A stretch of 64,000 bases of DNA, from the NCBI GenBank assembly GCA_024698075.1, contig JAILRP010000082.1, positions 26,422 to 90,421 of the forward strand, in the 5' to 3' direction. The translations under genes and the position numbers were made by a program. The notes under the pieces are model-generated. The model did not search any database. It saw nothing but the letters and a program-made list of their open reading frames with translations, and was not told the DNA's origin. The DNA comes from Lachnospiraceae bacterium (lineage in GTDB: Bacteria > Bacillota > Clostridia > Lachnospirales > Lachnospiraceae). Each line of letters opens with the position of its first letter. Within the stretch, counting starts at the first letter, position 1. Positions 2,859 through 12,950 of the stretch are shown piece by piece.

Positions 2859-4079
2859 ATGAAAGAAAAAGTCATTCTGGCCTACTCAGGCGGGCTCGAC
2901 ACCACCGCCATCATTCCCTGGCTCAAGGAAAACTATGATTACGAGGTCATCTGCTGCTGCATAGACTGCGGACAGGAAAGCGAACTTGACGGCCTCGAGG
3001 AGCGCGCAAAGGAAAGCGGTGCATCCAAACTGTATATAGAAGACGTAGTCGATGAATTCTGCGATGAATACATCATGCCCTGCGTAAAGGGCTGTGCGGT
3101 ATACGAGAACAAGTATCTTCTCGGAACGAGCATGGCAAGGCCCGTTATCGCAAAGCGGCTTGTCGAGATCGCACGCAAGGAAGGGGCTTCGGCCATCTGC
3201 CACGGAGCTACCGGCAAAGGAAATGACCAGATAAGGTTTGAGCTGGCCATAAAGGCTCTTGCACCGGATATCAGGATAATCGCCGCATGGCGTGATGACA
3301 AATGGAAGCTCGATTCCCGTGAATCCGAGATCGAATACTGCAGGAACCACGGAATACATCTTCCGTTCTCCGCAGACAACAGCTACAGCAGGGACCGCAA
3401 CCTCTGGCACATAAGCCACGAAGGCCTCGAACTCGAGGATCCGGCATGTGAGCCCAACTATGAGCATCTGCTCGTGCTCGGAGTCACTCCCGAAAAGGCT
3501 CCTGACGAAGGTGAGTATGTGACCATGACTTTCGAAGCGGGTGTTCCGGTCAGCATCAACGGCGAAAAGATGAAGGTATCCGACATCATCCGCAAGCTCA
3601 ATGCCCTCGGCGGAAAACACGGCATCGGCATTGTCGATATCGTTGAGAACCGCGTCGTAGGCATGAAGAGCCGCGGCGTATATGAGACACCGGGCGGAAC
3701 CATCCTCATGGAAGCCCACCAGCAGCTCGAGGAGCTCATCCTCGACCGCGACACCTATGCGCTCAAGAAGGACATGGGCAACCGCCTCGCTCAGATAGTA
3801 TACGAAGGCAAGTGGTTCACGCCTCTGCGTGAAGCAGTCTGCGCATTCATCGAGAGCACTCAGAAATACGTTACCGGAGAAGTAAAGTTCAAGCTTTACA
3901 AAGGCAATATCATCAAGGCCGGGACAACTTCACCGTATTCGCTCTATAACGAGAGCATCGCAAGCTTCAAGACCGGTGACCTTTATGACCACCATGATGC
4001 GACCGGATTCATCAACCTGTTCGGTCTGTCATGCAAGGTCCGCGCGATGAAGCTTCAGAGCCTTGAGGATAAAAAATAA
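2859..4079 (+). CDS. argG: Argininosuccinate synthase
   Basis: 406 aa with the N-terminal AYSGGLDTT PP-loop and ArgG-like sequence throughout (GATGKGNDQIRFE, ENRVVGMKSRGVYETPGG). The RBS AGGAGG lies upstream. Confidence 0.95.
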   Translation: MKEKVILAYSGGLDTTAIIPWLKENYDYEVICCCIDCGQESELDGLEERAKESGASKLYIEDVVDEFCDEYIMPCVKGCAVYENKYLLGTSMARPVIAKRLVEIARKEGASAICHGATGKGNDQIRFELAIKALAPDIRIIAAWRDDKWKLDSRESEIEYCRNHGIHLPFSADNSYSRDRNLWHISHEGLELEDPACEPNYEHLLVLGVTPEKAPDEGEYVTMTFEAGVPVSINGEKMKVSDIIRKLNALGGKHGIGIVDIVENRVVGMKSRGVYETPGGTILMEAHQQLEELILDRDTYALKKDMGNRLAQIVYEGKWFTPLREAVCAFIESTQKYVTGEVKFKLYKGNIIKAGTTSPYSLYNESIASFKTGDLYDHHDATGFINLFGLSCKVRAMKLQSLEDKK

Positions 4080-4397: not shown

Positions 4398-5129
4398 ATG
4401 ACCATATATCTGGCAATCTGCGACAACAACATAGCCGACCGCAAACAGCTCGAGCGCCTGCTGTCCCGCGAAAAGGACAGGCGCCTTCGGGAAAACTATG
4501 ACGTCCTCTATATCGATTCATTCGGGAGCGAGGAAGCTCTTATGGCCACCCCCGTAAAATATGACATATTTTTCGTAGATGTGACCGAAGGTGCCTCAAA
4601 CGGGATCGAGATAGCCAAAAAGCTCAGGCAGCGCGGTATCAGCGCTCCCATTGTGCTCTGCCAGTCAACGATAAACTATTCTTCATATGTAAATGCCCCC
4701 GAAGACATCATATATATCGAAAAGCCCATCAACGCCGGGCAGGTGAGCCACCTTACGGACGTTGCATTCGAATGGTCAAAGCGCAAGGCCCCGCTCATCG
4801 AGATAAGATGTCAGAAAGACACCCGTTTCATCAGACATGATGAGCTTGTAAAGGCAACGCCCCTCGATAAGTTCCTGACCAGGATCAGCCTGTCTGACGG
4901 CGAATGCGTCGATATGACAGAGTCCCTTGCATCGCTCGAAGTACAGTGCATGTCCTTTGGATGTTTTGTCAGATGCGGGAGGGACCTCATTAACGTTTAC
5001 CACATCGAAGGAACATCCGGGCGCGGCTTCCGCCTTTCCAACGGTGATATAGTCACTTATTCATTCACCCAGAAGAATGCCATCATCAAAGCCATGGCGG
5101 ACAGCATCGGTACATGCAGGGAACATTAG
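4398..5129 (+). CDS. Orphan response-regulator-like protein with a C-terminal LytTR DNA-binding domain
   Basis: 243 aa. The N-terminal receiver-like fold (IYLAICDNN...IFFVDV...) is followed by a LytTR-like C-terminal half (IEIRCQKDTRFIRHDELV...RCGRDLINVYHI). No histidine kinase gene lies adjacent. Confidence 0.75.
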   Translation: MTIYLAICDNNIADRKQLERLLSREKDRRLRENYDVLYIDSFGSEEALMATPVKYDIFFVDVTEGASNGIEIAKKLRQRGISAPIVLCQSTINYSSYVNAPEDIIYIEKPINAGQVSHLTDVAFEWSKRKAPLIEIRCQKDTRFIRHDELVKATPLDKFLTRISLSDGECVDMTESLASLEVQCMSFGCFVRCGRDLINVYHIEGTSGRGFRLSNGDIVTYSFTQKNAIIKAMADSIGTCREH

Positions 5130-6410
5130 CGCCGCACTCTCCTCCGTTTTTTCATATTTCGCAACTGCCTTCCTTATCAGCTCCATGAGCTCTTCCATTT
5201 CCGTTCTGATACGGCGGAGCCGCTCACACACTCTTTCAAGCGCATGTTCTGCGTATATCCTCGTGCTTATCGTATATGCTATATCCCGGCGGATATTGTC
5301 CACCCGGTCGGCCGCACTTATGATGATCGGTACCTGCTCGGACATGAGCATGGCTGCCGCCCGGCATCTGTCGGCGTCAAGATACATGCTTCCCGTGGAT
5401 GCAAAACCGACGGCGTCTGATGCTGCCGCAGTCAGTTTCCGAACGAATTCCGCCGTGAGCATCCCCATAACCGGGGCAGCTGTATCCGATATATCCGCGT
5501 CGGGCGTTGTCAGCGCAAGAGATATGGCAAGGCCCGCCGCCCTGCTCATAACACCTTTATCCTCTGATTTCACGGGATCGAGCAGCCGGCACATGGCATC
5601 CGTAAGCCTCCCGAGGCCCTTTGAGACCGCTCCCTGGCTTCTTACGCTCGTAAAGCTCCCATCCGCACCGAAACTGTTCTCGGTAAGCAGGGTGACCGGT
5701 GAATGCGCATACGCAGGACCCGTGTCATTGGCAACGTATATGCATGTTCCCGCTATCCCCGTAAGAAGGATGTTCACAAAGTCATTGTATGCGCTTATCG
5801 ATATGATCTTAGGCGAGGCGGCGGCAACCGCGTCGGCATTTTCCCGTATGAACTCATCGCCGAAGCCCTGTCCGTCATAGGAAACGCAGCGGCTGATCCT
5901 GTCTGCGCTCTTTACCGTGACATACTGGGCAAGGTTCCCTCCCTTTGAATGTCCCGTCACCTCTATGTCTGAATATGCGCTGCATTCGCTTTCGATAAAA
6001 TCATCCGCAAGGGCCTGCAGTCTCGTGTCTTCGGCAAATGCCCCCTCAAAGTTGTCGGTCCATGCTTCCTTTGTCCCTCCGGTCCCCCGGAATACGACCA
6101 CCGGCTTCTCATCCCTGTCATCCGTGTAGCAGATGGCCCTTATGTCTTTCTCTTCAAGGCATCTGGCGGCCGAAAGCCTGCCGAATTCCGGATTTTCGCG
6201 GATCCGCTCATCCATCTTCTCAAATACCGCCTTCACTTCGGCGGTGCTCATCCCTCCGCCTGCGGCGGCGCCATAAACGCTCTCTTCGGTAAATCCTCCG
6301 CCGTCGGCCCTGAAAGAGCCGATTATGTCTTCAATCGGCCTTTCTGACAGGCATGCCGGTATATATATGAAATTTGATAAGAGAAGTAGTTCCTGTTCTG
6401 TATATGCCAC
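5061..6410 (-). CDS. DUF2974/Mbeg1-like alpha/beta-hydrolase (lipase or esterase fold) with a C-terminal helical domain; candidate type VII secreted effector
   Basis: 449 aa. It has the N-terminal LLLLSNFIYIP signature, VVVFRGTGG, and the nucleophile elbow VTGHSKGGNLAQYV (GxSxG). The last ~150 aa are predicted helical and end ...ELIRKAVAKYEKTEES (YxxxE). No Sec-type signal peptide is visible. It is the last gene of the WXG100/EssC operon, 2 nt after the preceding gene. Confidence 0.75.
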   Translation of the reverse strand: MAYTEQELLLLSNFIYIPACLSERPIEDIIGSFRADGGGFTEESVYGAAAGGGMSTAEVKAVFEKMDERIRENPEFGRLSAARCLEEKDIRAICYTDDRDEKPVVVFRGTGGTKEAWTDNFEGAFAEDTRLQALADDFIESECSAYSDIEVTGHSKGGNLAQYVTVKSADRISRCVSYDGQGFGDEFIRENADAVAAASPKIISISAYNDFVNILLTGIAGTCIYVANDTGPAYAHSPVTLLTENSFGADGSFTSVRSQGAVSKGLGRLTDAMCRLLDPVKSEDKGVMSRAAGLAISLALTTPDADISDTAAPVMGMLTAEFVRKLTAAASDAVGFASTGSMYLDADRCRAAAMLMSEQVPIIISAADRVDNIRRDIAYTISTRIYAEHALERVCERLRRIRTEMEELMELIRKAVAKYEKTEESAALMFPACTDAVRHGFDDGILLGE

Positions 6411-6412
6411 TC

Positions 6413-7699
6413 TTACTCTATTCCCACTACATAGGTGTAAGCGCCGGCGGTGAGCCTGTCGCCGTCGGAGAGCTTCTTTTCCGAAACCCTTACTCCGTTG
6501 ACTCTTGTTCCGTTTGCAGACTTTAAGTCTCTGACAAAAACGCTTCCGTCATCTTCATACAGCTCGAAGTGTCTCCTTGAAAGCGCATCGTCGTCTATAA
6601 CCACATCGCAGTCTCCTCTGCCTACCGTCATCGGATAAGAAAGGGCTGCGGTATATTTTCCGTCAGATGCTCTTCCGCCTGTCAGCGTCACCACCCTTCC
6701 GTTCTCATACAGAAGCCGCGTGGATCCCGCGTCACCATCATCAAGCACTGTGGTGCCCGCTATGTCAAAATCACCGAAGAATTCCTCCTCACGCTCCTGC
6801 ACTCTTACAATCCCACTGCGCTTCTTCTTCATGACCGCAAAGCCTCCGAGGATGCCGGCAGTAAGTCCGGCGAGGACAAGTGCCGCGGAGAGGATGAGCG
6901 CACCGGTTCCGGCAAAGAAATGCGGTGTCCTCTCATATTCGTATACGACTCCCTCCTCTTCAAAAGGCCCTTCCATATATTCTTCCGGACCGATCTCATC
7001 GTACTCGCCGTATTCTTCTTCGTAGGTCTGCCCTTCATCTTCGCCGGCATATCCGTCCGTTTCTTCGTATGCTTCGTATCCCTCATCCCCGGCGGGCTCA
7101 TCCTCTTCCTCATACCGGCTCCACCAGGCCCTGCTGTATTCATCCATCGCCGAAAAGACCATTTCGGTAAGCTGTCTGTCTACTTCCGCATCCGAGCCTT
7201 CGAACTCAGATTCAAACAGCCGTCCTCCGCTTGTCACCGCAACCGCCGACAGACCCTTCTTTGCCGCTGCATTATCCTCCTGATCTAGCATCACCACATA
7301 GACCGGGTACCCGCTCTTTTCGAGCAGATAATACAGCTCTTCCTTCTCATGTGAGATCATTCCGCCCTCGAGACCGTCCGTGAACACTACTATGTCCCTG
7401 CAGGCAAAATCGGATGACCTCCACCGAAGTATCACTTCACAGAGCGTATCTCCAAGGTTAGAATCCTTCGGTCCGAACTCAATGCCGTCAAGGGTGCACA
7501 TAAGATCATTCGCATCCCCCGTGAAGCTTTCTTCTTCCGATACGTCATGCTCGTATGTGCTGAGGCAGAATGCCCTGTCCTCCGGAAGATGGTAGAACAT
7601 ATATTTAAGCGTTGCCTTTGCAATCTTTTGGCTGACCGGGCCAAGCGTCGCATCATTGTCGAGAAGGACCAGGGTCTGTCCGCATACCCGCATGCTCAA
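6413..7699 (-). CDS. Membrane protein: N-terminal vWA-like domain, Glu/Tyr-rich acidic linker, one TM helix, C-terminal FHA domain
   Basis: 428 aa. The vWA-like elements are LVLLDNDATLG (DxDxT in the MIDAS position) and IVVFTDG. The acidic low-complexity stretch is YEEEDEPAGDEGYEAYEETDGYAGEDEGQTYEEEYGEYDE. The TM helix is GALILSAALVLAGLTAGILGGFAV followed by MKKKR. The FHA signature is VGRGDCDVVIDD..LSRRHFEL...SANGTRVNG. The FHA call is firm. The vWA call is tentative. Confidence 0.7.
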   Translation of the reverse strand: MSMRVCGQTLVLLDNDATLGPVSQKIAKATLKYMFYHLPEDRAFCLSTYEHDVSEEESFTGDANDLMCTLDGIEFGPKDSNLGDTLCEVILRWRSSDFACRDIVVFTDGLEGGMISHEKEELYYLLEKSGYPVYVVMLDQEDNAAAKKGLSAVAVTSGGRLFESEFEGSDAEVDRQLTEMVFSAMDEYSRAWWSRYEEEDEPAGDEGYEAYEETDGYAGEDEGQTYEEEYGEYDEIGPEEYMEGPFEEEGVVYEYERTPHFFAGTGALILSAALVLAGLTAGILGGFAVMKKKRSGIVRVQEREEEFFGDFDIAGTTVLDDGDAGSTRLLYENGRVVTLTGGRASDGKYTAALSYPMTVGRGDCDVVIDDDALSRRHFELYEDDGSVFVRDLKSANGTRVNGVRVSEKKLSDGDRLTAGAYTYVVGIE

Positions 7700-8010
7700 C
7701 TTATCGCAGCCGCGGAAAGGCTGCCTGCAAGACTGCCACTCTCCGATTCGGCCTGAATGTATTCGTTAGCCATCTCGGTCAGGTCCTCCGAGTGTTTTCT
7801 GATGATCGCATAAAGCCTGTTCATATCGGATGAAAGTGACGAGAACCTGTTTGCGAATCCGGTCGCCGCCTCACCCTGCCATACTGGCTTGAAGCTTTCC
7901 ACGATGGATATCATCTCCTCCGTCAGGTTTCTTATCACCGTTTCGGTATTCATAAACTCCGACGCGGCCTCGATCAGTTTTTCCGGCGTTACTTTGAGCA
8001 TTTTTTCCAT
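7696..8010 (-). CDS. WXG100 (EsxA-like) protein
   Basis: 104 aa, helical, with the central motif VWQGEAATGF and the C-terminal EYIQAE (YxxxE). It overlaps the downstream gene by 4 nt. Confidence 0.85.
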   Translation of the reverse strand: MEKMLKVTPEKLIEAASEFMNTETVIRNLTEEMISIVESFKPVWQGEAATGFANRFSSLSSDMNRLYAIIRKHSEDLTEMANEYIQAESESGSLAGSLSAAAIS

Positions 8011-8297
8011 TACATGACCCTCCCTGTATTCCTGCGCTCCGCCATGTCATATCTGTCGGCGATATAGCCTATCACCTCCAGATAGCGGCTAATGACTTCA
8101 ATGAAAGAATCCATCTGTCCTGCATTTCTCATGAACTGCTCGTGAAAGCTGTCGTTTGCGGCACCTTCCCACATGGATCTGAGCGAAAGTTCCTTTGAAC
8201 AGAGTATATCCTTTTCCTGCCTGAACTTCTGAAGAAGAGCTGTCAGCTCATCCTTCTTGCCCCTCAGCCTCACGCTGTCGACTTGATAAAATGACAT
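8010..8297 (-). CDS. WXG100-like small helical protein
   Basis: 95 aa with the central MWEGAANDSF and the C-terminal RYDMAE (YxxxE). It overlaps the next gene by 1 nt. Confidence 0.75.
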   Translation of the reverse strand: MSFYQVDSVRLRGKKDELTALLQKFRQEKDILCSKELSLRSMWEGAANDSFHEQFMRNAGQMDSFIEVISRYLEVIGYIADRYDMAERRNTGRVM

Positions 8298-8344
8298 TTG
8301 TTATTATTCTCCTTTCTTGTTAACATAACTACCGACCAGCTCGG

Positions 8345-8650
8345 TCAAAAGCAGACCGATGCGGCCGCTTTTTCAGCCTTGTATACAATGTCGGCAGTCG
8401 CTCTGATATTTCTGGCGATACGCATAAGATCGTCTGCAGTACTGTATATTTCGGCCGTCGTCCTTTTTCCTGCCAGCTCTATTGACCCACCTGCATCACC
8501 CCTCCAGCTATTCTTCAGAACGAGGAGCGCCGACTCGACTCCGCTGTTCGCGGCACGGCTCAGGCTGTCCGCCAGACGTTCGAGCTCCTGGGCCTGGTTT
8601 ATGGCTCTTGAAAAATCCATTTCTATCTCTCTTTTGCTTTTTTCTGTCAT
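8345..8650 (-). CDS. WXG100-like small helical protein
   Basis: 101 aa with the central SWRGDAGG. The RBS and coding pattern are consistent with operon membership. Confidence 0.7.
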   Translation of the reverse strand: MTEKSKREIEMDFSRAINQAQELERLADSLSRAANSGVESALLVLKNSWRGDAGGSIELAGKRTTAEIYSTADDLMRIARNIRATADIVYKAEKAAASVCF

Positions 8651-8943
8651 AGTCCGTATTCCTTTATCATCATCATAACTTCCCTTTCACATCCTCCGTA
8701 CAGCGCATACGCTTCCCTGGCAGCGCGGACCGCCTCTCCTATCCTGGCAGTATATATGCCTGCGGAAGCCATATCGCTGTCAATGGCGGACATGAAAGCC
8801 TCGTTTGCATCGCCGTCCCAGAAGATGTCCAGATACGCGGCATATCCGGCTATCCTTCCAACTTCTTCATGCAGTTTCATATAAAGCTGCGTGAGCCGTT
8901 CAAGCTTTTCCCAAAGCGGAACATACTCAATACTCATCCTCAA
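8647..8943 (-). CDS. WXG100-like small helical protein
   Basis: 98 aa with the central FWDGDANEAF and the C-terminal LYGGCE (YxxxE). It overlaps the flanking genes by 4 and about 11-17 nt. Confidence 0.7.
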   Translation of the reverse strand: MRMSIEYVPLWEKLERLTQLYMKLHEEVGRIAGYAAYLDIFWDGDANEAFMSAIDSDMASAGIYTARIGEAVRAAREAYALYGGCEREVMMMIKEYGL

Positions 8944-9160
8944 TTCCGATCATCACCCCGCTTCCGTCACAGAGCCCGGCATCAGCCAGACTCATCTCAT
9001 CAGGCAGCTCTCCGCGGCCCGAAAACATTATGAAACAGTTGTTTTTTAATGAGAAAAAACTTCTCACAAATTTCTTAAGATCCCCTACGCAGATCGATTC
9101 CGAGACCCTCATCCACAGCCTCCTGTCCTCTGCCGGAATGATCAATTCTATAGATATCAT
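8927..9160 (-). CDS. YukD/EsaB-like ubiquitin-fold (beta-grasp) protein
   Basis: 77 aa. Its size, its position directly after the EssC-like gene, and the C-terminal pattern LPDEMSLADAGLCDGSGVMI match the YukD family. Confidence 0.7.
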   Translation of the reverse strand: MISIELIIPAEDRRLWMRVSESICVGDLKKFVRSFFSLKNNCFIMFSGRGELPDEMSLADAGLCDGSGVMIGIEDEY

Positions 9161-9179
9161 ATGTTACTAAACCTCTGTT

Positions 9180-12100
9180 TTACTGGATTTGTGAGTTATC
9201 CACATCAAATGCCACCGGTATCTTTATGTTCCCGAAAAACTGTTTTTCATCGAATTTCATAACTGTTGCAATCCCTCTTGCATGTGACTTTTGCATGTCT
9301 GAAAACGGCATGTATGAAAAGTCAAAATTCCTGTTCTCATCGATGCTTCCCCCGAAGTGTATTACGTACGGATGAACGGCTGCGGCATCATATATCTTCC
9401 TCCCGAAATGACGTGAGCCGGCATCATTTTCCATCACCGCCATCACGAGGGGGCCGTGTCCGTCCCACATGGGACTGTTCTCAAAAAAACCTGCCATCTC
9501 ATCTTCTTCTGCAGTGCTCCTGCTGACAGAGTAAAAATCATCTAGCAGCTCCGAAAAGCTTCCTACGGACACTATGCCTCCGTCTTCCATATCACGGCAG
9601 GCCGCGATAAAGCTCAGGTATGACTTTGCGTCCACATATTTTCTGCCGATAAGTGCCGCGGTCACGGAGACATTGAACAGGAACGTGTGCCTTCCCTTAT
9701 ATGGCTTGCCGCCGATCAGTATGCACCTGACAGAGCCAAGCGGCAGCCCAAACACCCTTCCGGTCAGGATCTCATAGCCCGCAGGGAAGATGTCAGTCTC
9801 GGCAGATGCTTCAAGCAGGTGCTCAAGAGTGGGATCATCCGGAAGGTGCGGGTATTTGGGGGCGTCCGTTCCTCCGGGTTCCGGCTCTTTGCCGTCTCTT
9901 ACTGCCTGAAACTCGAGCACTGAACCTGACAGCATTCCCACTCCGCGTCCCGCATATCCTGGGATCTCCGGAATCTCAGCCGCACTTACCCTGAAGAAAG
10001 AGGCTTCCCGGTATATGTCGCTTCCGGCGAGGAACAGACAGGTATCAAACAGCCTCTCCTCCCTTTCCGGTACCGGAGCGGGGGCCGAGGCCAACACCGT
10101 GATGCCGACGCTGCGTCCCAGCATGAGGATGCGCGTTATGTACTCGGCTGAAGAAGGCGCGGCATTTCTGATCCCGTTAAGATCATCCAGGACAAGCACT
10201 ATTCCGGTGCCGCCTCCGCTCTTTCTCCGCCTTGTGAGCTCATCCGACACAAAGATCGCCATGCGAAGTATGTCGGATACCGCATCATCCGTTATATATC
10301 CCCCGCACCAGCTGCACTTTTCCAGCTTTTTGAGCTTTCCTCCGCCAAAGTCGATGATGTATACGGCATATCTTCCCTTAATCCTTCTGAGCAGCGTATT
10401 TATGAGCTCGCTCTTGCCGCTGCCGCTCCGTCCGGTGATAAGGACATTTCCCATCTCTTCGGGAGAATAAAACGCCCGGACGTATCTCTGCGACGCAGGA
10501 TCGTCATATATGGCATAGGCTTCGCTGTCTGAAATCTCCTGCGGGAGCGGAGGAAGAAACAGGCTGCTGCCGTGCCGGATCCCGGCAGTTTCCGCCGCAT
10601 CCCCTATCGCCCTCATCACGAGGTCAAACCATGTCCCTGCGTTATCTCCCGGAGCGTATTCACCCCCTATCTCCTGTTCAAACAGAAGATCCTCATATAC
10701 CCGCGGCCTCTCACCAGCATTACCGGCAACAGACATCGCATAACCGCTCTGAAATTCTGCAGTGCCGGTTGAATTTCCGGCAAGGATGCACCGGCCGCAT
10801 TCTTTTATCGAGGCTGCATCCGGCCGGCCTATGATATCGACCGAATCCGACCTCTCAACGAGCCTTAAGGCTATCCTGAACCCGGAATTGCTTCTTATCC
10901 TTTCATCCACAACACCCGCAGGCTTCTGTGTGGCAAGTATCAGATGCATTCCCAGGCTTCTTCCTATCTGCGAAACGCTGATCAGGCTGTCCATAAGATC
11001 CGGTTCTTCCCTTCGAAGCTCCGCAAACTCATCAACTATTATCAGGATGTGGGGGAGCGGATCGGGGGCCGCCTTGGCATCATACAGCCTCGTATAATCG
11101 TTTATGCTGTTGACGCCTGATGCTGCAAAGATCTTCTGTCTGCGCAGGTTTTCGCTCTTCAGCGCTTTCATTGCCCTGCGTGCATCGATCCTCGAAAGAT
11201 TGGAGATGCTTCCCACAAGATGTGGAAGTCCCTCAAACAGATTTGACATTCCGCCGCCCTTGTAATCTACGAGAAAAAAGGCCAGCTTGTCCGGAGGATA
11301 CCTTGAGGCTAATGACAGGATTATGGTTGTCAGAAGCTCGCTCTTGCCGCTTCCGGTCGTTCCCGCTATAAGGCCGTGGGGGCCGTCTGCCTTCTCATGA
11401 ATGTCAAGGATGACTTTTGCCCCTCCCGGACCAAGCCCTATAGGGGCATATAATGAAGCAGTCGTGTCACTTTCCCTGTATGCGGAAAGGACAGATCCGG
11501 ACAGGTTCCGCGCATCTGCTCCCGGCGGAAGGCCGAGCAGACGTCCGAAGGGGACTTTTTCGGGGATCCCGCCTTCAGTTTCAGACCCTGCCCTTGCAAG
11601 CTGTGAGGCAAACGAAAAGCACATTTCCGGACTGAGCATGTCACACCTGATATCATTCTCCGGCCCGTTTACCGAACATGCAGTCCCGGCAGGGATGCCT
11701 TCCGACCTGGCTATTGCAAGTATCACGGCCCGGCCCTGTGCGGCATGAGCGTATGCCTCCGAAAGATCTCCTGTCACGATCAGGGCCTGTGTGGCGTCAT
11801 CCGCCGGTACATGGGGCAGAAGAGACGTCCACATATAATACCTCATGAGCTCCCCTGCAAGGCTTAAGGCTATCTTAAAGCTATGGGGCGGATATTTGAC
11901 CGCAGCCTGCAGAATGAAGGCCGCAAGTGCCTGCCTGTCATCTTCCGTGTCAAGCCAGAACACCGACAGGCTTCCCTTTGCAAGCCTTACGAGCACCGGG
12001 CAGTCCGGTATGCTCTCATACCTGCGCCCAAGCTCGGCGGGAAGATCTTTAAGGGAATCATCCACTCCGGCGAATCTTTCCTTTGGGACGCTGATCCTGA

Positions 12101-12950
12101 CCGGATTTGGTATCCTTCCGATCCCGGCTCTTACCTCTACGGCCGTATCACCTGCCGGCGGTGTGGCCCATATCATGCATCCTCCGTTCTCCTTAAGATA
12201 TCCGCCGACCTGAGGATATATGCGGGCAAGAGCCTCCGACGCCTCCTTTGTCCTTGCCTTCACGGTCTCCTCACAGGCTTCAAGGTATGATATGTATGTG
12301 CTCCTCCTGCGCCTTTCCTCGGCCTTCTGTCTCCTTGTCCGTCCCATGACATTGACTGCGGCCCAGATCGCCGCAAAGACCGAAGAGAGGACTGCCACAG
12401 TCCTTCCCGCTCCGAGCAGTATCGGGACTGCCATCGTAAGCGCCGGACCTGCTGAGAGCAGTACCGAAGGCTTCTCAGGCACCCTTCTCGGAGGCGGTGC
12501 GTCTATCTCAACCGACGGAGGGGGCTCATACAGGGCCTGGGTCATGGGGATGCGGATATTCTCTGCAGGCTCGCTCCCTCCCGTCCAGATGATGCTGTGC
12601 TCTCCGATCCTTATGCGGTCTCCTACCCTGATGTGGCACCGGCTTCCTTTATTCACTTTTTCTCCTCTTATCACGGCCCCGTTCGTGCCCAGTACTTCAA
12701 CTGATGCCACATCATGCCTGATGCTGCGGATACAAAGGTGAACCCTTGATATGAACGGGTCGGTAAGATGAAGGTCACTGTTTTGGTCCCTCCCGACCAG
12801 AAGAGGTGACCTCTCTCCGGAAAGGTAAAAAACACCCACTGTATTCTCCGGCTGATATAGGATTAACGATAATCTGGAATCATTGCGATGCGTCCAACGC
12901 AAGATGAGATCTAGAAAAAAGAATTCCGTTTGTGGAACGAATGATATCAC
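9180..12950 (-). CDS. essC: EssC/YukB-like FtsK/SpoIIIE-family type VII secretion ATPase with an N-terminal FHA domain
   Basis: 1256 aa with a GTG start. The FHA signature is VGRDQNSDL...ISRVHLCI...GTNGAVIRG. The TM region is LSAGPALTMAVPILLGAG..VLSSVFAAIWAAV. P-loop 1 is GLIAGTTGSGKSELL with Walker B ILIIVDEFAEL. P-loop 2 is ITGRSGSGKSELINTLL with VLVLDDLNG. The third domain has a degenerate Walker A (IGGKPYKGRHT). Confidence 0.88.
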   Translation of the reverse strand: MISFVPQTEFFFLDLILRWTHRNDSRLSLILYQPENTVGVFYLSGERSPLLVGRDQNSDLHLTDPFISRVHLCIRSIRHDVASVEVLGTNGAVIRGEKVNKGSRCHIRVGDRIRIGEHSIIWTGGSEPAENIRIPMTQALYEPPPSVEIDAPPPRRVPEKPSVLLSAGPALTMAVPILLGAGRTVAVLSSVFAAIWAAVNVMGRTRRQKAEERRRRSTYISYLEACEETVKARTKEASEALARIYPQVGGYLKENGGCMIWATPPAGDTAVEVRAGIGRIPNPVRISVPKERFAGVDDSLKDLPAELGRRYESIPDCPVLVRLAKGSLSVFWLDTEDDRQALAAFILQAAVKYPPHSFKIALSLAGELMRYYMWTSLLPHVPADDATQALIVTGDLSEAYAHAAQGRAVILAIARSEGIPAGTACSVNGPENDIRCDMLSPEMCFSFASQLARAGSETEGGIPEKVPFGRLLGLPPGADARNLSGSVLSAYRESDTTASLYAPIGLGPGGAKVILDIHEKADGPHGLIAGTTGSGKSELLTTIILSLASRYPPDKLAFFLVDYKGGGMSNLFEGLPHLVGSISNLSRIDARRAMKALKSENLRRQKIFAASGVNSINDYTRLYDAKAAPDPLPHILIIVDEFAELRREEPDLMDSLISVSQIGRSLGMHLILATQKPAGVVDERIRSNSGFRIALRLVERSDSVDIIGRPDAASIKECGRCILAGNSTGTAEFQSGYAMSVAGNAGERPRVYEDLLFEQEIGGEYAPGDNAGTWFDLVMRAIGDAAETAGIRHGSSLFLPPLPQEISDSEAYAIYDDPASQRYVRAFYSPEEMGNVLITGRSGSGKSELINTLLRRIKGRYAVYIIDFGGGKLKKLEKCSWCGGYITDDAVSDILRMAIFVSDELTRRRKSGGGTGIVLVLDDLNGIRNAAPSSAEYITRILMLGRSVGITVLASAPAPVPEREERLFDTCLFLAGSDIYREASFFRVSAAEIPEIPGYAGRGVGMLSGSVLEFQAVRDGKEPEPGGTDAPKYPHLPDDPTLEHLLEASAETDIFPAGYEILTGRVFGLPLGSVRCILIGGKPYKGRHTFLFNVSVTAALIGRKYVDAKSYLSFIAACRDMEDGGIVSVGSFSELLDDFYSVSRSTAEEDEMAGFFENSPMWDGHGPLVMAVMENDAGSRHFGRKIYDAAAVHPYVIHFGGSIDENRNFDFSYMPFSDMQKSHARGIATVMKFDEKQFFGNIKIPVAFDVDNSQIQ

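Follow-up and report, generated by a model that had tools for sequence, protein, structure and literature searches.

A reverse-architecture lipase with an invariant C-terminal YxxxE/D motif, encoded in an apparently undescribed type VII secretion cluster of Lachnospiraceae

Introduction

In type VII secretion systems (T7SS) of the T7SSa type, YxxxD/E is an export signal, and EsxB/CFP-10 proteins are WXG100-type substrates. Substrates of "reverse" architecture, with an enzyme at the N-terminus and a targeting domain at the C-terminus, have been recognized only since 2023 and studied only in staphylococci. Here we describe a lipase of this architecture, encoded as the last gene of a T7SS cluster in a 64,000-nucleotide (nt) stretch of Lachnospiraceae DNA (contig JAILRP010000082.1, positions 26,422 to 90,421; hereafter the window). 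The family to which it belongs is a natural case of an enzyme that itself bears an invariant YxxxE/D motif at the end of an Esx-like hairpin. Our best reading, which we hold with moderate confidence, is that the lipase is a T7SS-exported phospholipase-type enzyme, probably antibacterial, with its own C-terminal YxxxE signal.

TslA of Staphylococcus aureus (SAOUHSC_00406), a T7SSb reverse phospholipase A toxin, has the catalytic triad Ser164/Asp224/His251 in a lipase domain modelled on Yarrowia lipase 3O0D, and no F/YxxxD/E-type motif was found on its partner proteins TlaA1 and TlaA2 (Garrett et al., 2023; PMC10730906). The Tsl2 family, including TslM, has since been characterized (Higginson et al., 2026; PMC13560087). 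Both TslA and Tsl2 are accessory, island-borne and sometimes multi-copy, and are accompanied by immunity arrays (PMC10730906; PMC13560087). Reverse lipases were also noted in 2024 at T7SSe (Neobacillus) and T7SSg (Paenibacillus) loci, in a survey of T7SSa-j components that makes no mention of Lachnospiraceae (Garrett, Higginson & Palmer, 2024; PMC11217815). With these and the Tsl2/TslM family described (PMC13560087), TslA is not the single exception that a first-pass annotation of this DNA, made from the sequence alone, took it to be. Outside T7SS, DUF2974/lipase domains occur in the X-Tfe antibacterial effectors of the type IV secretion system X-T4SS (PMC6536674). A literature search returned no paper linking DUF2974 or Lachnospiraceae to T7SS.

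Judged by published description (architecture, spacing and motifs) rather than by sequence comparison, the window lipase resembles TslA in its N-terminal class-3-type Ser-Asp-His lipase, C-terminal all-helical EsxA-like domain and lack of a signal peptide, and in the small helical WXG-related proteins encoded along with it; in a sister clade, the gene immediately upstream of the lipase encodes a lipoprotein, which mirrors the tilA-tslA order (PMC10730906). It differs in being a universal single-copy cluster member rather than an island cassette with immunity arrays, in having its own invariant YxxxE/D and a hairpin turn without G-x-L or L-x-G, and in its setting, a T7SS that lacks EssA, EssB and EsaA, with no adjacent immunity gene and, in the sister clade, a lipoprotein family other than DUF576. 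The analogy with TslA drawn at first pass stands for the general architecture; the island and immunity-array setting and the LXG-like turn of TslA are not shared. With TslM the lipase shares the reverse order, the C-terminal trafficking domain and WXG100-family genes alongside, a partner gene in TslM; the long disordered linker, LFG motif, single partner and DUF1433 membrane immunity proteins of TslM are not seen here, nor are its up to seven paralogous copies on islands and S. aureus pathogenicity islands (SaPIs). The T7SSe and T7SSg reverse lipases likewise have a C-terminal helical domain, a non-b T7SS cluster and extra WXG100-like genes, but are variable candidate substrates at some loci. 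Like WXG100 substrates of the EsxB/CFP-10 type, the lipase family has, as its last ~95 residues, a helix-turn-helix whose YxxxE stands ~13 residues before the end of the protein; unlike them, its hairpin is fused behind an enzyme, has a turn without W-x-G, and resembles them at weak statistical significance. The X-Tfe proteins and the Tle-type effector 9cys_A of a type VI secretion system (T6SS) use the same hydrolase superfamily as a secreted antibacterial effector domain, but with another delivery and targeting module and with adjacent periplasmic immunity proteins. By analogy, the lipase would work like TslA/Tsl2 and the T7SSe/T7SSg reverse lipases; membership of the TslA family is not established, because there is no LXG-like turn motif and no adjacent immunity gene, and the secretion system is of a different type.

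A two-domain lipase with a predicted Ser-Asp-His active site

The lipase product is 100% identical to the NCBI entry [quoted passage not shown] (MAG, metagenome-assembled genome). The gene and the features of its N-terminal domain are as follows.

5061..6410, reverse strand: lipase gene, two-domain product (lipase and helical C-terminal domain), GTG start, stop codon at 5061-5063, 449 aa
5646..6410, reverse strand: alpha/beta-hydrolase domain (Mbeg1-like/DUF2974, class-3-lipase-like), residues 1-255
5940..5954, reverse strand: GHSKG nucleophile elbow, residues 153-157, with the Ser155 codon at 5946-5948
5874-5876, reverse strand: Asp179
5781..5783, reverse strand: Asp210 (in NDF), likely catalytic acid
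5703..5705, reverse strand: His236 (in AHS), likely catalytic base

We modelled the protein with AlphaFold2 (AF2) from 73 family sequences, obtaining a mean predicted local distance difference test score (pLDDT) of 87 and a predicted template modelling score (pTM) of 0.74; conservation counts below refer to these 73 aligned members unless stated otherwise. Strands and helices of the hydrolase domain extend over residues 5-243, with pLDDT mostly >90. The sole significant Pfam family is Mbeg1-like/PF11187 (residues 92-220, E=4e-15, 56.3 bits against a cut-off of 21.1), as the first-pass annotation had recognized; Lipase_3 reached only E=0.04. Sequence searches of the PDB with the whole lipase, as a single sequence and as a profile, gave only generic matches for the hydrolase domain. 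With the whole model, the top Foldseek match in the PDB was the T6SS lipase effector 9cys_A (E=2e-5), and the only other matches below 1e-3 were to Aspergillus feruloyl esterase A (2ix9/2bjh), which has the class-3 lipase fold. Every residue of the GHSKG elbow (G153, H154, S155, K156 and G157), a motif already picked out at first pass, is invariant in the 73 sequences, and so are Asp179, Asp210 and His236. Asp210 was chosen as the catalytic acid because of strand order in the AF2 model and the analogy to the spacing of the TslA triad: the predicted triad Ser155-Asp210-His236 has spacings of 55 and 26 residues, resembling S164/D224/H251 of TslA.

The N-terminus, MAYTEQELLLLSNFIYIPAC (beginning MAYTEQE), is acidic and has no twin-arginine. 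By inspection and Kyte-Doolittle hydropathy, rather than a dedicated predictor, no signal peptide or membrane segment is apparent in the lipase, in agreement with the earlier statement that it has no Sec or Tat signal; its maximum 19-residue hydropathy mean is 1.38, versus 2.2 for the membrane segment of the neighboring FHA protein. An N-terminal "IPAC" was considered as a lipobox and ruled out in view of the acidic N-region and of a Cys that homologs do not conserve. A contig scan, saturated by generic DUF2974 proteins, recovered just three full-length lipase-family members, a count that says little about taxonomic breadth, and a promoter and terminator scan gave nothing decisive.

An invariant YxxxE/D at the end of a helical hairpin

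The features of the C-terminal half, which the AF2 model places behind the enzyme in the reversed order first proposed, are as follows.

5412..5630, reverse strand: middle helical region, three helices, fast-evolving, residues 261-333 (AF2 pLDDT 67-82)
5085..5375, reverse strand: C-terminal helix-turn-helix hairpin of WXG100/EsxB-like geometry, residues 346-442 (AF2)
5142..5156, reverse strand: Y419-E-K-T-E423, predicted export motif of YxxxD/E type, conserved in 73/73
5064..5114, reverse strand: lineage-specific C-terminal extension CTDAVRHGFDDGILLGE, ~17 residues, antisense to the 3' end of the convergent gene

The motif is the strongest feature of this half. Tyr419 is present in 73/73 sequences and the +4 position is always acidic (Glu in 69, Asp in 4), far above chance; when the C-terminal domain is aligned by itself (27 diverse sequences; column identity averages 36%), no column other than that of Tyr419 is invariant. 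It follows directly after the second helix of the hairpin, at a median of 13 residues from the C-terminus across the family. The protein was first read as ending in AKYEKTEES; the YxxxD/E pattern is there, but in the window lipase 30 residues follow Tyr419, versus the family median of 13, and YEKTE lies 26 residues from the end. The difference comes from the ~17-codon extension of the open reading frame (ORF), which also explains the 69-nt overlap of the lipase and the convergent gene at their 3' ends (5061-5129), compared with 0-18 nt in L001, L003 and L005. This extension probably arose by stop-codon loss, and the last five model residues (445-449) have pLDDT <50. YxxxE is also conserved near the C-terminus of the small WXG-like cluster proteins S1 (EYQKTE), S3 (RYExAE) and S4 (EYxxAE), listed in the next section; S2 has VYKAEK.

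The AF2 model is all-helical here rather than globular and non-helical, with helices at 261-277, 282-301, 304-333, 346-376 and 381-442, a low-confidence loop at 334-345 and a turn at 377-380. The helical half thus spans residues 261-442, ~180 aa where ~150 had been estimated. Against PDB sequences, the best natural match of the family profile was the 135-aa WXG100 protein 4lws_A (E=0.0025, profile positions 343-434), retained with a profile of the C-terminal domain only (E=0.0028); the W-E-G turn of 4lws_A aligns opposite the family "Y-T-I" turn, and its terminal YEAREE opposite the family YExxE. We take 4LWS to be a Thermomonospora curvata EsxA-EsxB heterodimer entry. Comparison of the hairpin with alignments of the cluster's small proteins by hhalign gave 49% for S3 and 46% for S4 (82 columns), and 28% for S1; the middle helices matched none of the cluster WXG protein profiles. 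A separate AF2 model of residues 256-449 (pLDDT 84) had no significant Foldseek match in the PDB (E>1), and neither an LXG structure, the comparison suggested at first pass, nor an LXG complex was among the matches. At E>1, EsxA and EsxB structures aligned with TMt 0.75-0.80 (EsxA 2vrz_B, TMt 0.80, root-mean-square deviation 2.4; Bacillus anthracis EsxB 4j41, TMt 0.80), and generic or designed antiparallel hairpins fit equally well. In Pfam, the hairpin matched neither LXG (even at E<=10) nor WXG100 (PF06013), and only T7SS_ESX_EspC appeared, at E=0.14. Its turn is I-A-Y-T, with a family consensus of [IL]-A-Y-T-I that has no conserved Gly, and the family alignment holds no conserved L-x-G, G-x-L or W-x-G there. 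We therefore describe residues 346-442 as a predicted WXG100/EsxB-like hairpin carrying a T7SSa-type YxxxD/E; support is strong for the motif and weak for the homology.

An exhaustive phmmer search of the C-terminal domain against 1.84 billion representatives returned nine matches, all of them family members or gene fragments, and therefore no evidence that the domain is reused on other N-terminal toxins.

These features bear on whether the lipase could be a true TslA/Tsl2-family member, with an LXG-like C-terminal domain, two of the small proteins as Lap partners and immunity encoded elsewhere. Domain order and a similar triad spacing do match TslA (PMC10730906), small WXG-like genes lie in the same operon, and reverse lipases are known at other non-b T7SS loci (PMC11217815). 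However, the LXG toxin family (PF04740) has no match in the lipase even at E<=10 and the helical domain is C-terminal, not N-terminal; the turn of the hairpin conserves neither L-x-G nor G-x-L; and YxxxE sits on the lipase itself, whereas none was found on the TslA partners (PMC10730906). The lipase is moreover a core cluster gene instead of an island cassette, in a T7SS without the T7SSb genes EssA, EssB and EsaA. We regard such membership as improbable.

The lipase is a fixed member of an eight-gene cluster

The remaining genes of the cluster, listed from its first gene, lie upstream of the lipase.

9180..12950, reverse strand: EssC-type FtsK/SpoIIIE ATPase with N-terminal FHA, 1256 aa (TIGR03928 2e-138; FtsK_SpoIIIE 2e-41; FHA 3e-10)
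8927..9160, reverse strand: YukD/EsaB-like protein, 77 aa, assigned by position and ortholog matches
8647..8943, reverse strand: S1, 98-aa divergent WXG-like protein (WDGDAN; family C-terminal consensus EYQKTE; hhalign S1-S3 96%)
8345..8650, reverse strand: S2, 101-aa divergent WXG-like protein (WRGDAG; C-terminal VYKAEK; TIGR03930 2.9e-5)
8010..8297, reverse strand: S3, 95-aa WXG100 protein (WEGAAN; C-terminal RYDMAE)
7696..8010, reverse strand: S4, 104-aa WXG100 protein (WQGEAA; C-terminal EYIQAE; WXG100 4.6e-11; TIGR03930 2e-12)
6413..7699, reverse strand: vWA-membrane-FHA protein, 428 aa, between the WXG genes and the lipase (FHA E=4e-18; weak VWA_2 E=0.037)

The lipase is thus the terminal gene of a T7SS operon, as first proposed, with EssC, the YukD-like gene and four ~100-aa WXG-like genes upstream; the four small proteins do precede it but do not directly adjoin it, the 428-aa vWA-FHA gene lying between. 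The window YukD-like protein has no Pfam match, and its orthologs weakly match PF08817 YukD or Ubiquitin_5. The L004 ortholog of the vWA-FHA protein matches VWA at 4.7e-10. In the window the vWA-FHA stop lies 2 nt before the lipase start, and because the two genes are either 2 nt apart or overlap by 4 nt, translational coupling is suggested.

Gene order (EssC, YukD-like, four small WXG-like, FHA, lipase) is kept in 14/14 loci, wherever the contig reaches far enough, always with a single copy of the lipase. Sampling covered lipase homologs at 57, 44, 41, 40, 37, 35 and 33% identity, the genome loci L006-L008, and three loci reached through the FHA protein; starting from the lipase and starting, independently, from the FHA protein gave the same order. 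The cluster occupies two chromosomal sites, with most loci beside argG and L004 elsewhere, its cluster intact.

Family searches at the window locus found no EssA, EssB (YukC), EsaA, kinase, PPM phosphatase, DUF6382, TsxI, AAA+ or EspG-like gene in the cluster, and no paralogs of T7SS components occur elsewhere in the 64 kb. The T7SSb core set is incomplete in the cluster, the search not extending to the rest of the genome: only EssC, the YukD-like, the WXG-like and the vWA-FHA proteins gave family matches, and unrelated housekeeping genes flank the cluster in the 14 loci. Because EssA/EssB/EsaA, the kinase, PPM phosphatase, DUF6382, AAA+ and EspG-like components are not present, the cluster matches neither T7SSb nor T7SSc-j. 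The eight genes, which recur in L001, L003-L005 and L086-L091, correspond to no published T7SSa-j component list, and may represent an undescribed subtype, common in Lachnospiraceae MAGs and usually located by argG.

Lipase divergence tracks that of EssC: identities to the window are 57/44/41/33% for the lipase where those for EssC are 47/36/35/30%, with ArgG at 87-94%. Where two genomes share 87-94% identity in the flanking ArgG, their T7SS genes share 30-57% (window 2859-4079 versus 5061-12950; L001-L008), and the cluster thus evolves much faster than its housekeeping flank, as would be expected under conflict. Within the cluster, the fastest-evolving parts are the YukD-like protein, S1 (the fastest of the four WXG-like proteins) and the helical domain of the lipase; mean pairwise identities across eight loci are 53% for the lipase domain, 23% for the helical domain, 24% for the YukD-like protein and 34% for S1. 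A mirror-tree and partial-correlation comparison of the C-terminal domain with the small WXG proteins over the eight loci was uninformative.

Candidate immunity proteins and other delivery modules

In the most distant T7SS-linked clade (L004, L007 and L086; 33-36% identity), an extra gene encoding ~240-250 aa lies directly upstream of the lipase.

L004 9292-10008; L007 293-1027; L086 9247-10008: lipoprotein/anchored-protein gene, directly upstream of the lipase

Two of the three products carry classic lipoboxes (LLGGC, GVSGC) and the third has an N-terminal membrane anchor, making this protein a candidate immunity protein. A homology search from the L004 lipoprotein found only six close relatives, the family therefore being too divergent for that search method; by tblastn, the same family also occurs upstream of DUF2974 lipases with no T7SS link. 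The first-pass remark that no obvious immunity gene follows the lipase holds for the window; in this sister clade a candidate is encoded upstream. In the 64-kb window, the search for an immunity lipoprotein proposed at that stage found no homolog of the family (best tblastn E=5.6), and no ORF near the cluster reads convincingly as a lipoprotein.

Related lipases carry other C-terminal modules. L009 (3162-11482) and L010 (97-4786), from Lachnospiraceae and Roseburia MAGs, encode a 550-aa lipase that ends in the PAAR-like DUF4280 (E=1e-22). Its gene follows a tandem pair of lipoprotein genes of this family; also upstream are two VgrG-like genes (Phage_GPD plus Phage_base_V) and one for a pentapeptide-repeat protein. 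Between the lipase domains of the window and of L009, identity is 38% (E=2e-45). L011 (1070-15673), from a Lachnospira MAG, shows a membrane-anchored protein of ~260 aa and an orphan lipase module of ~230-270 aa alternating in five cassettes, after which comes a 2005-aa protein that has a lipase at its N-terminus and RTX/HCBP repeats at its C-terminus. Since lipoproteins or anchored proteins accompany these related lipases (L004, L007, L086 and L009-L011), the lipase module behaves like that of a polymorphic toxin whose anchored, extracytoplasmic partner bears the signature of an immunity protein. All three architectures (T7SS hairpin, PAAR-like DUF4280 and RTX) place the delivery module at the C-terminus, which offers a simple reason for the "reverse" order: it would be a property of a lipase module that receives its delivery modules at the C-terminus.

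Two of these arrangements deserve description in their own right. The L009/L010 fusion resembles the spike-tip effector of a T6SS-like or other contractile system, here in Gram-positives, and L011 has the form of a polymorphic-toxin-style array.

DUF5721, a soluble protein, was tried as an immunity candidate and rejected: in L087 (9342-10551), L088 (11289-12559) and L086 (11730-12263) its gene lies downstream of the LytTR-like regulator and is co-oriented with it. In several loci it is convergent to the lipase and overlaps its 3' end; it is absent from the window.

Several points weigh against an exported antibacterial enzyme. No immunity candidate lies by the lipase in the window locus or in ten other loci (11/14), and a lipase that is single-copy, syntenic and universal in its cluster is atypical for a polymorphic toxin; together, the missing candidates and the strict "core" behavior weaken the antibacterial role. 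The kinship of the hairpin with WXG100 proteins is weak (no Pfam match, no W-x-G, hhalign 46-49%, Foldseek E>1), and the 17-residue read-through in the window could disturb the C-terminal signal. The same lack of immunity candidates in 11/14 loci and the same core behavior make a serious rival of the proposal that the lipase is a dedicated, non-antagonistic cargo, acting in envelope or membrane remodelling, in lipid scavenging in the gut or rumen, or on host or eukaryotic membranes. Its fixed position in 14/14 clusters and co-divergence with EssC, the lack of an immunity candidate anywhere in the window and of toxin or immunity arrays at these T7SS loci all agree with such a role, as does the founding DUF2974 member, Mbeg1, which was found as a host NF-kB-inducing effector (PMC6867899). 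Three loci nevertheless have an adjacent lipoprotein or anchored protein, of a family that stands in tandem arrays by related lipase toxin modules; in structure, the lipase is matched most closely by an antibacterial T6SS lipase effector; and the cluster evolves fast relative to its flanks, as expected under conflict. We consider a non-antagonistic role unlikely, though less so than TslA-family membership. It is the toxin-like relatives and the sister-clade lipoprotein that favor an antibacterial role.

The lipase could also never leave the cell, serving instead as a cytoplasmic accessory, a hydrolase or scaffold with a regulatory or maturation role in the system, docked by its helical domain on EssC or the FHA protein; MycP, a core serine-hydrolase component of T7SSa, is a loose parallel. 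It would fit this role that the lipase is conserved strictly 1:1 with the machine genes, is tightly coupled to the FHA gene and has no apparent signal peptide or membrane segment. An invariant YxxxE/D at a hairpin end, however, is a substrate hallmark, the same lipase module is fused elsewhere to PAAR-like and RTX delivery modules, and the candidate immunity proteins are extracytoplasmic. With a substrate-type motif and toxin-type kin, an accessory of the machine is very improbable, the least likely of the readings considered here.

Proposed mechanism

The gene, its domains and conserved residues, its predicted fold and its strict linkage to the cluster are shown above; what we infer about export, pairing, activity, target and immunity is the following. 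The lipase would be made in the cytoplasm as a two-domain cargo for the adjacent T7SS. Its N-terminal 255 residues would form an active class-3-type lipase or phospholipase (Ser155-Asp210-His236), and its C-terminal ~190 residues an all-helical targeting domain, of which the last ~95 would be a WXG100/EsxB-like hairpin ending in YxxxE/D. By analogy to T7SS substrates, the hairpin would be presented to the EssC ATPase, probably in a bundle with at least one of the four WXG-like proteins, and the lipase would be exported as a folded protein. Outside the cell it would attack membrane lipids, most likely those of competing bacteria. Where a protector is present, in the sister clade, it would be a membrane-anchored extracytoplasmic lipoprotein encoded directly upstream.

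More tentatively, and with rather less confidence than we place in our best reading, we suggest that the lipase is the universal dedicated cargo of an undescribed, minimal eight-gene Lachnospiraceae T7SS and not an accessory toxin, with an EsxB-like export hairpin and its YxxxE in cis, and its lipase module accepting only C-terminal delivery modules. If so, it would offer a simple one-enzyme model for how T7SS recognize C-terminal signals on folded enzymes. The combination of a cis YxxxE/D on the hairpin of an enzyme, universal presence in its cluster, an eight-gene T7SS apparently without earlier description and a lipase module found across three delivery routes is new.

This very small and apparently undescribed cluster belongs to abundant gut and rumen commensals. 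If the lipase is exported by its own YxxxE signal, it would provide a tractable signal to mutate and the first functional handle on T7SS in Lachnospiraceae, and would extend T7SSa-type signal logic to Bacillota. The recurrence of a single lipase module in company with three C-terminal delivery modules and a shared lipoprotein/anchored family likewise points to an unrecognized toxin-immunity pair in gut Clostridia.

Flanking gene and variation among cluster genes

The gene downstream of the lipase is convergent and regulator-like, in line with the first-pass annotation.

4398..5129, forward strand: convergent REC-like/LytTR-like gene, 243 aa, weak Response_reg and LytR matches, 69-nt overlap with the lipase 3' end

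We considered this gene as a member of the T7SS cluster and rejected it as part of the argG flank: where genes have been inserted (L007, L086), it remains beside DUF1294/argG, and L004, a site away from argG, lacks it. Nor is it homologous to the extra gene of L004.

The vWA-FHA protein has a membrane segment at ~267-290, with a Kyte-Doolittle peak of 2.2 at residue 267. This is a single hydrophobic stretch of ~30 residues followed by KKKRSG, and no N-terminal signal peptide precedes it; for the ~265-aa part made up of the vWA region and an acidic linker, an N-out topology without a signal peptide and a re-entrant hairpin are both conceivable. The FHA protein of L087 (7467-7910) is only 147 aa long and does not have the vWA part. 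In the most frequently sampled lineage (L089 1816-5494; 23 contigs), two called ORFs (737 and 492 aa) stand in place of a single EssC, either an EccCa/EccCb-like split or a frameshift.

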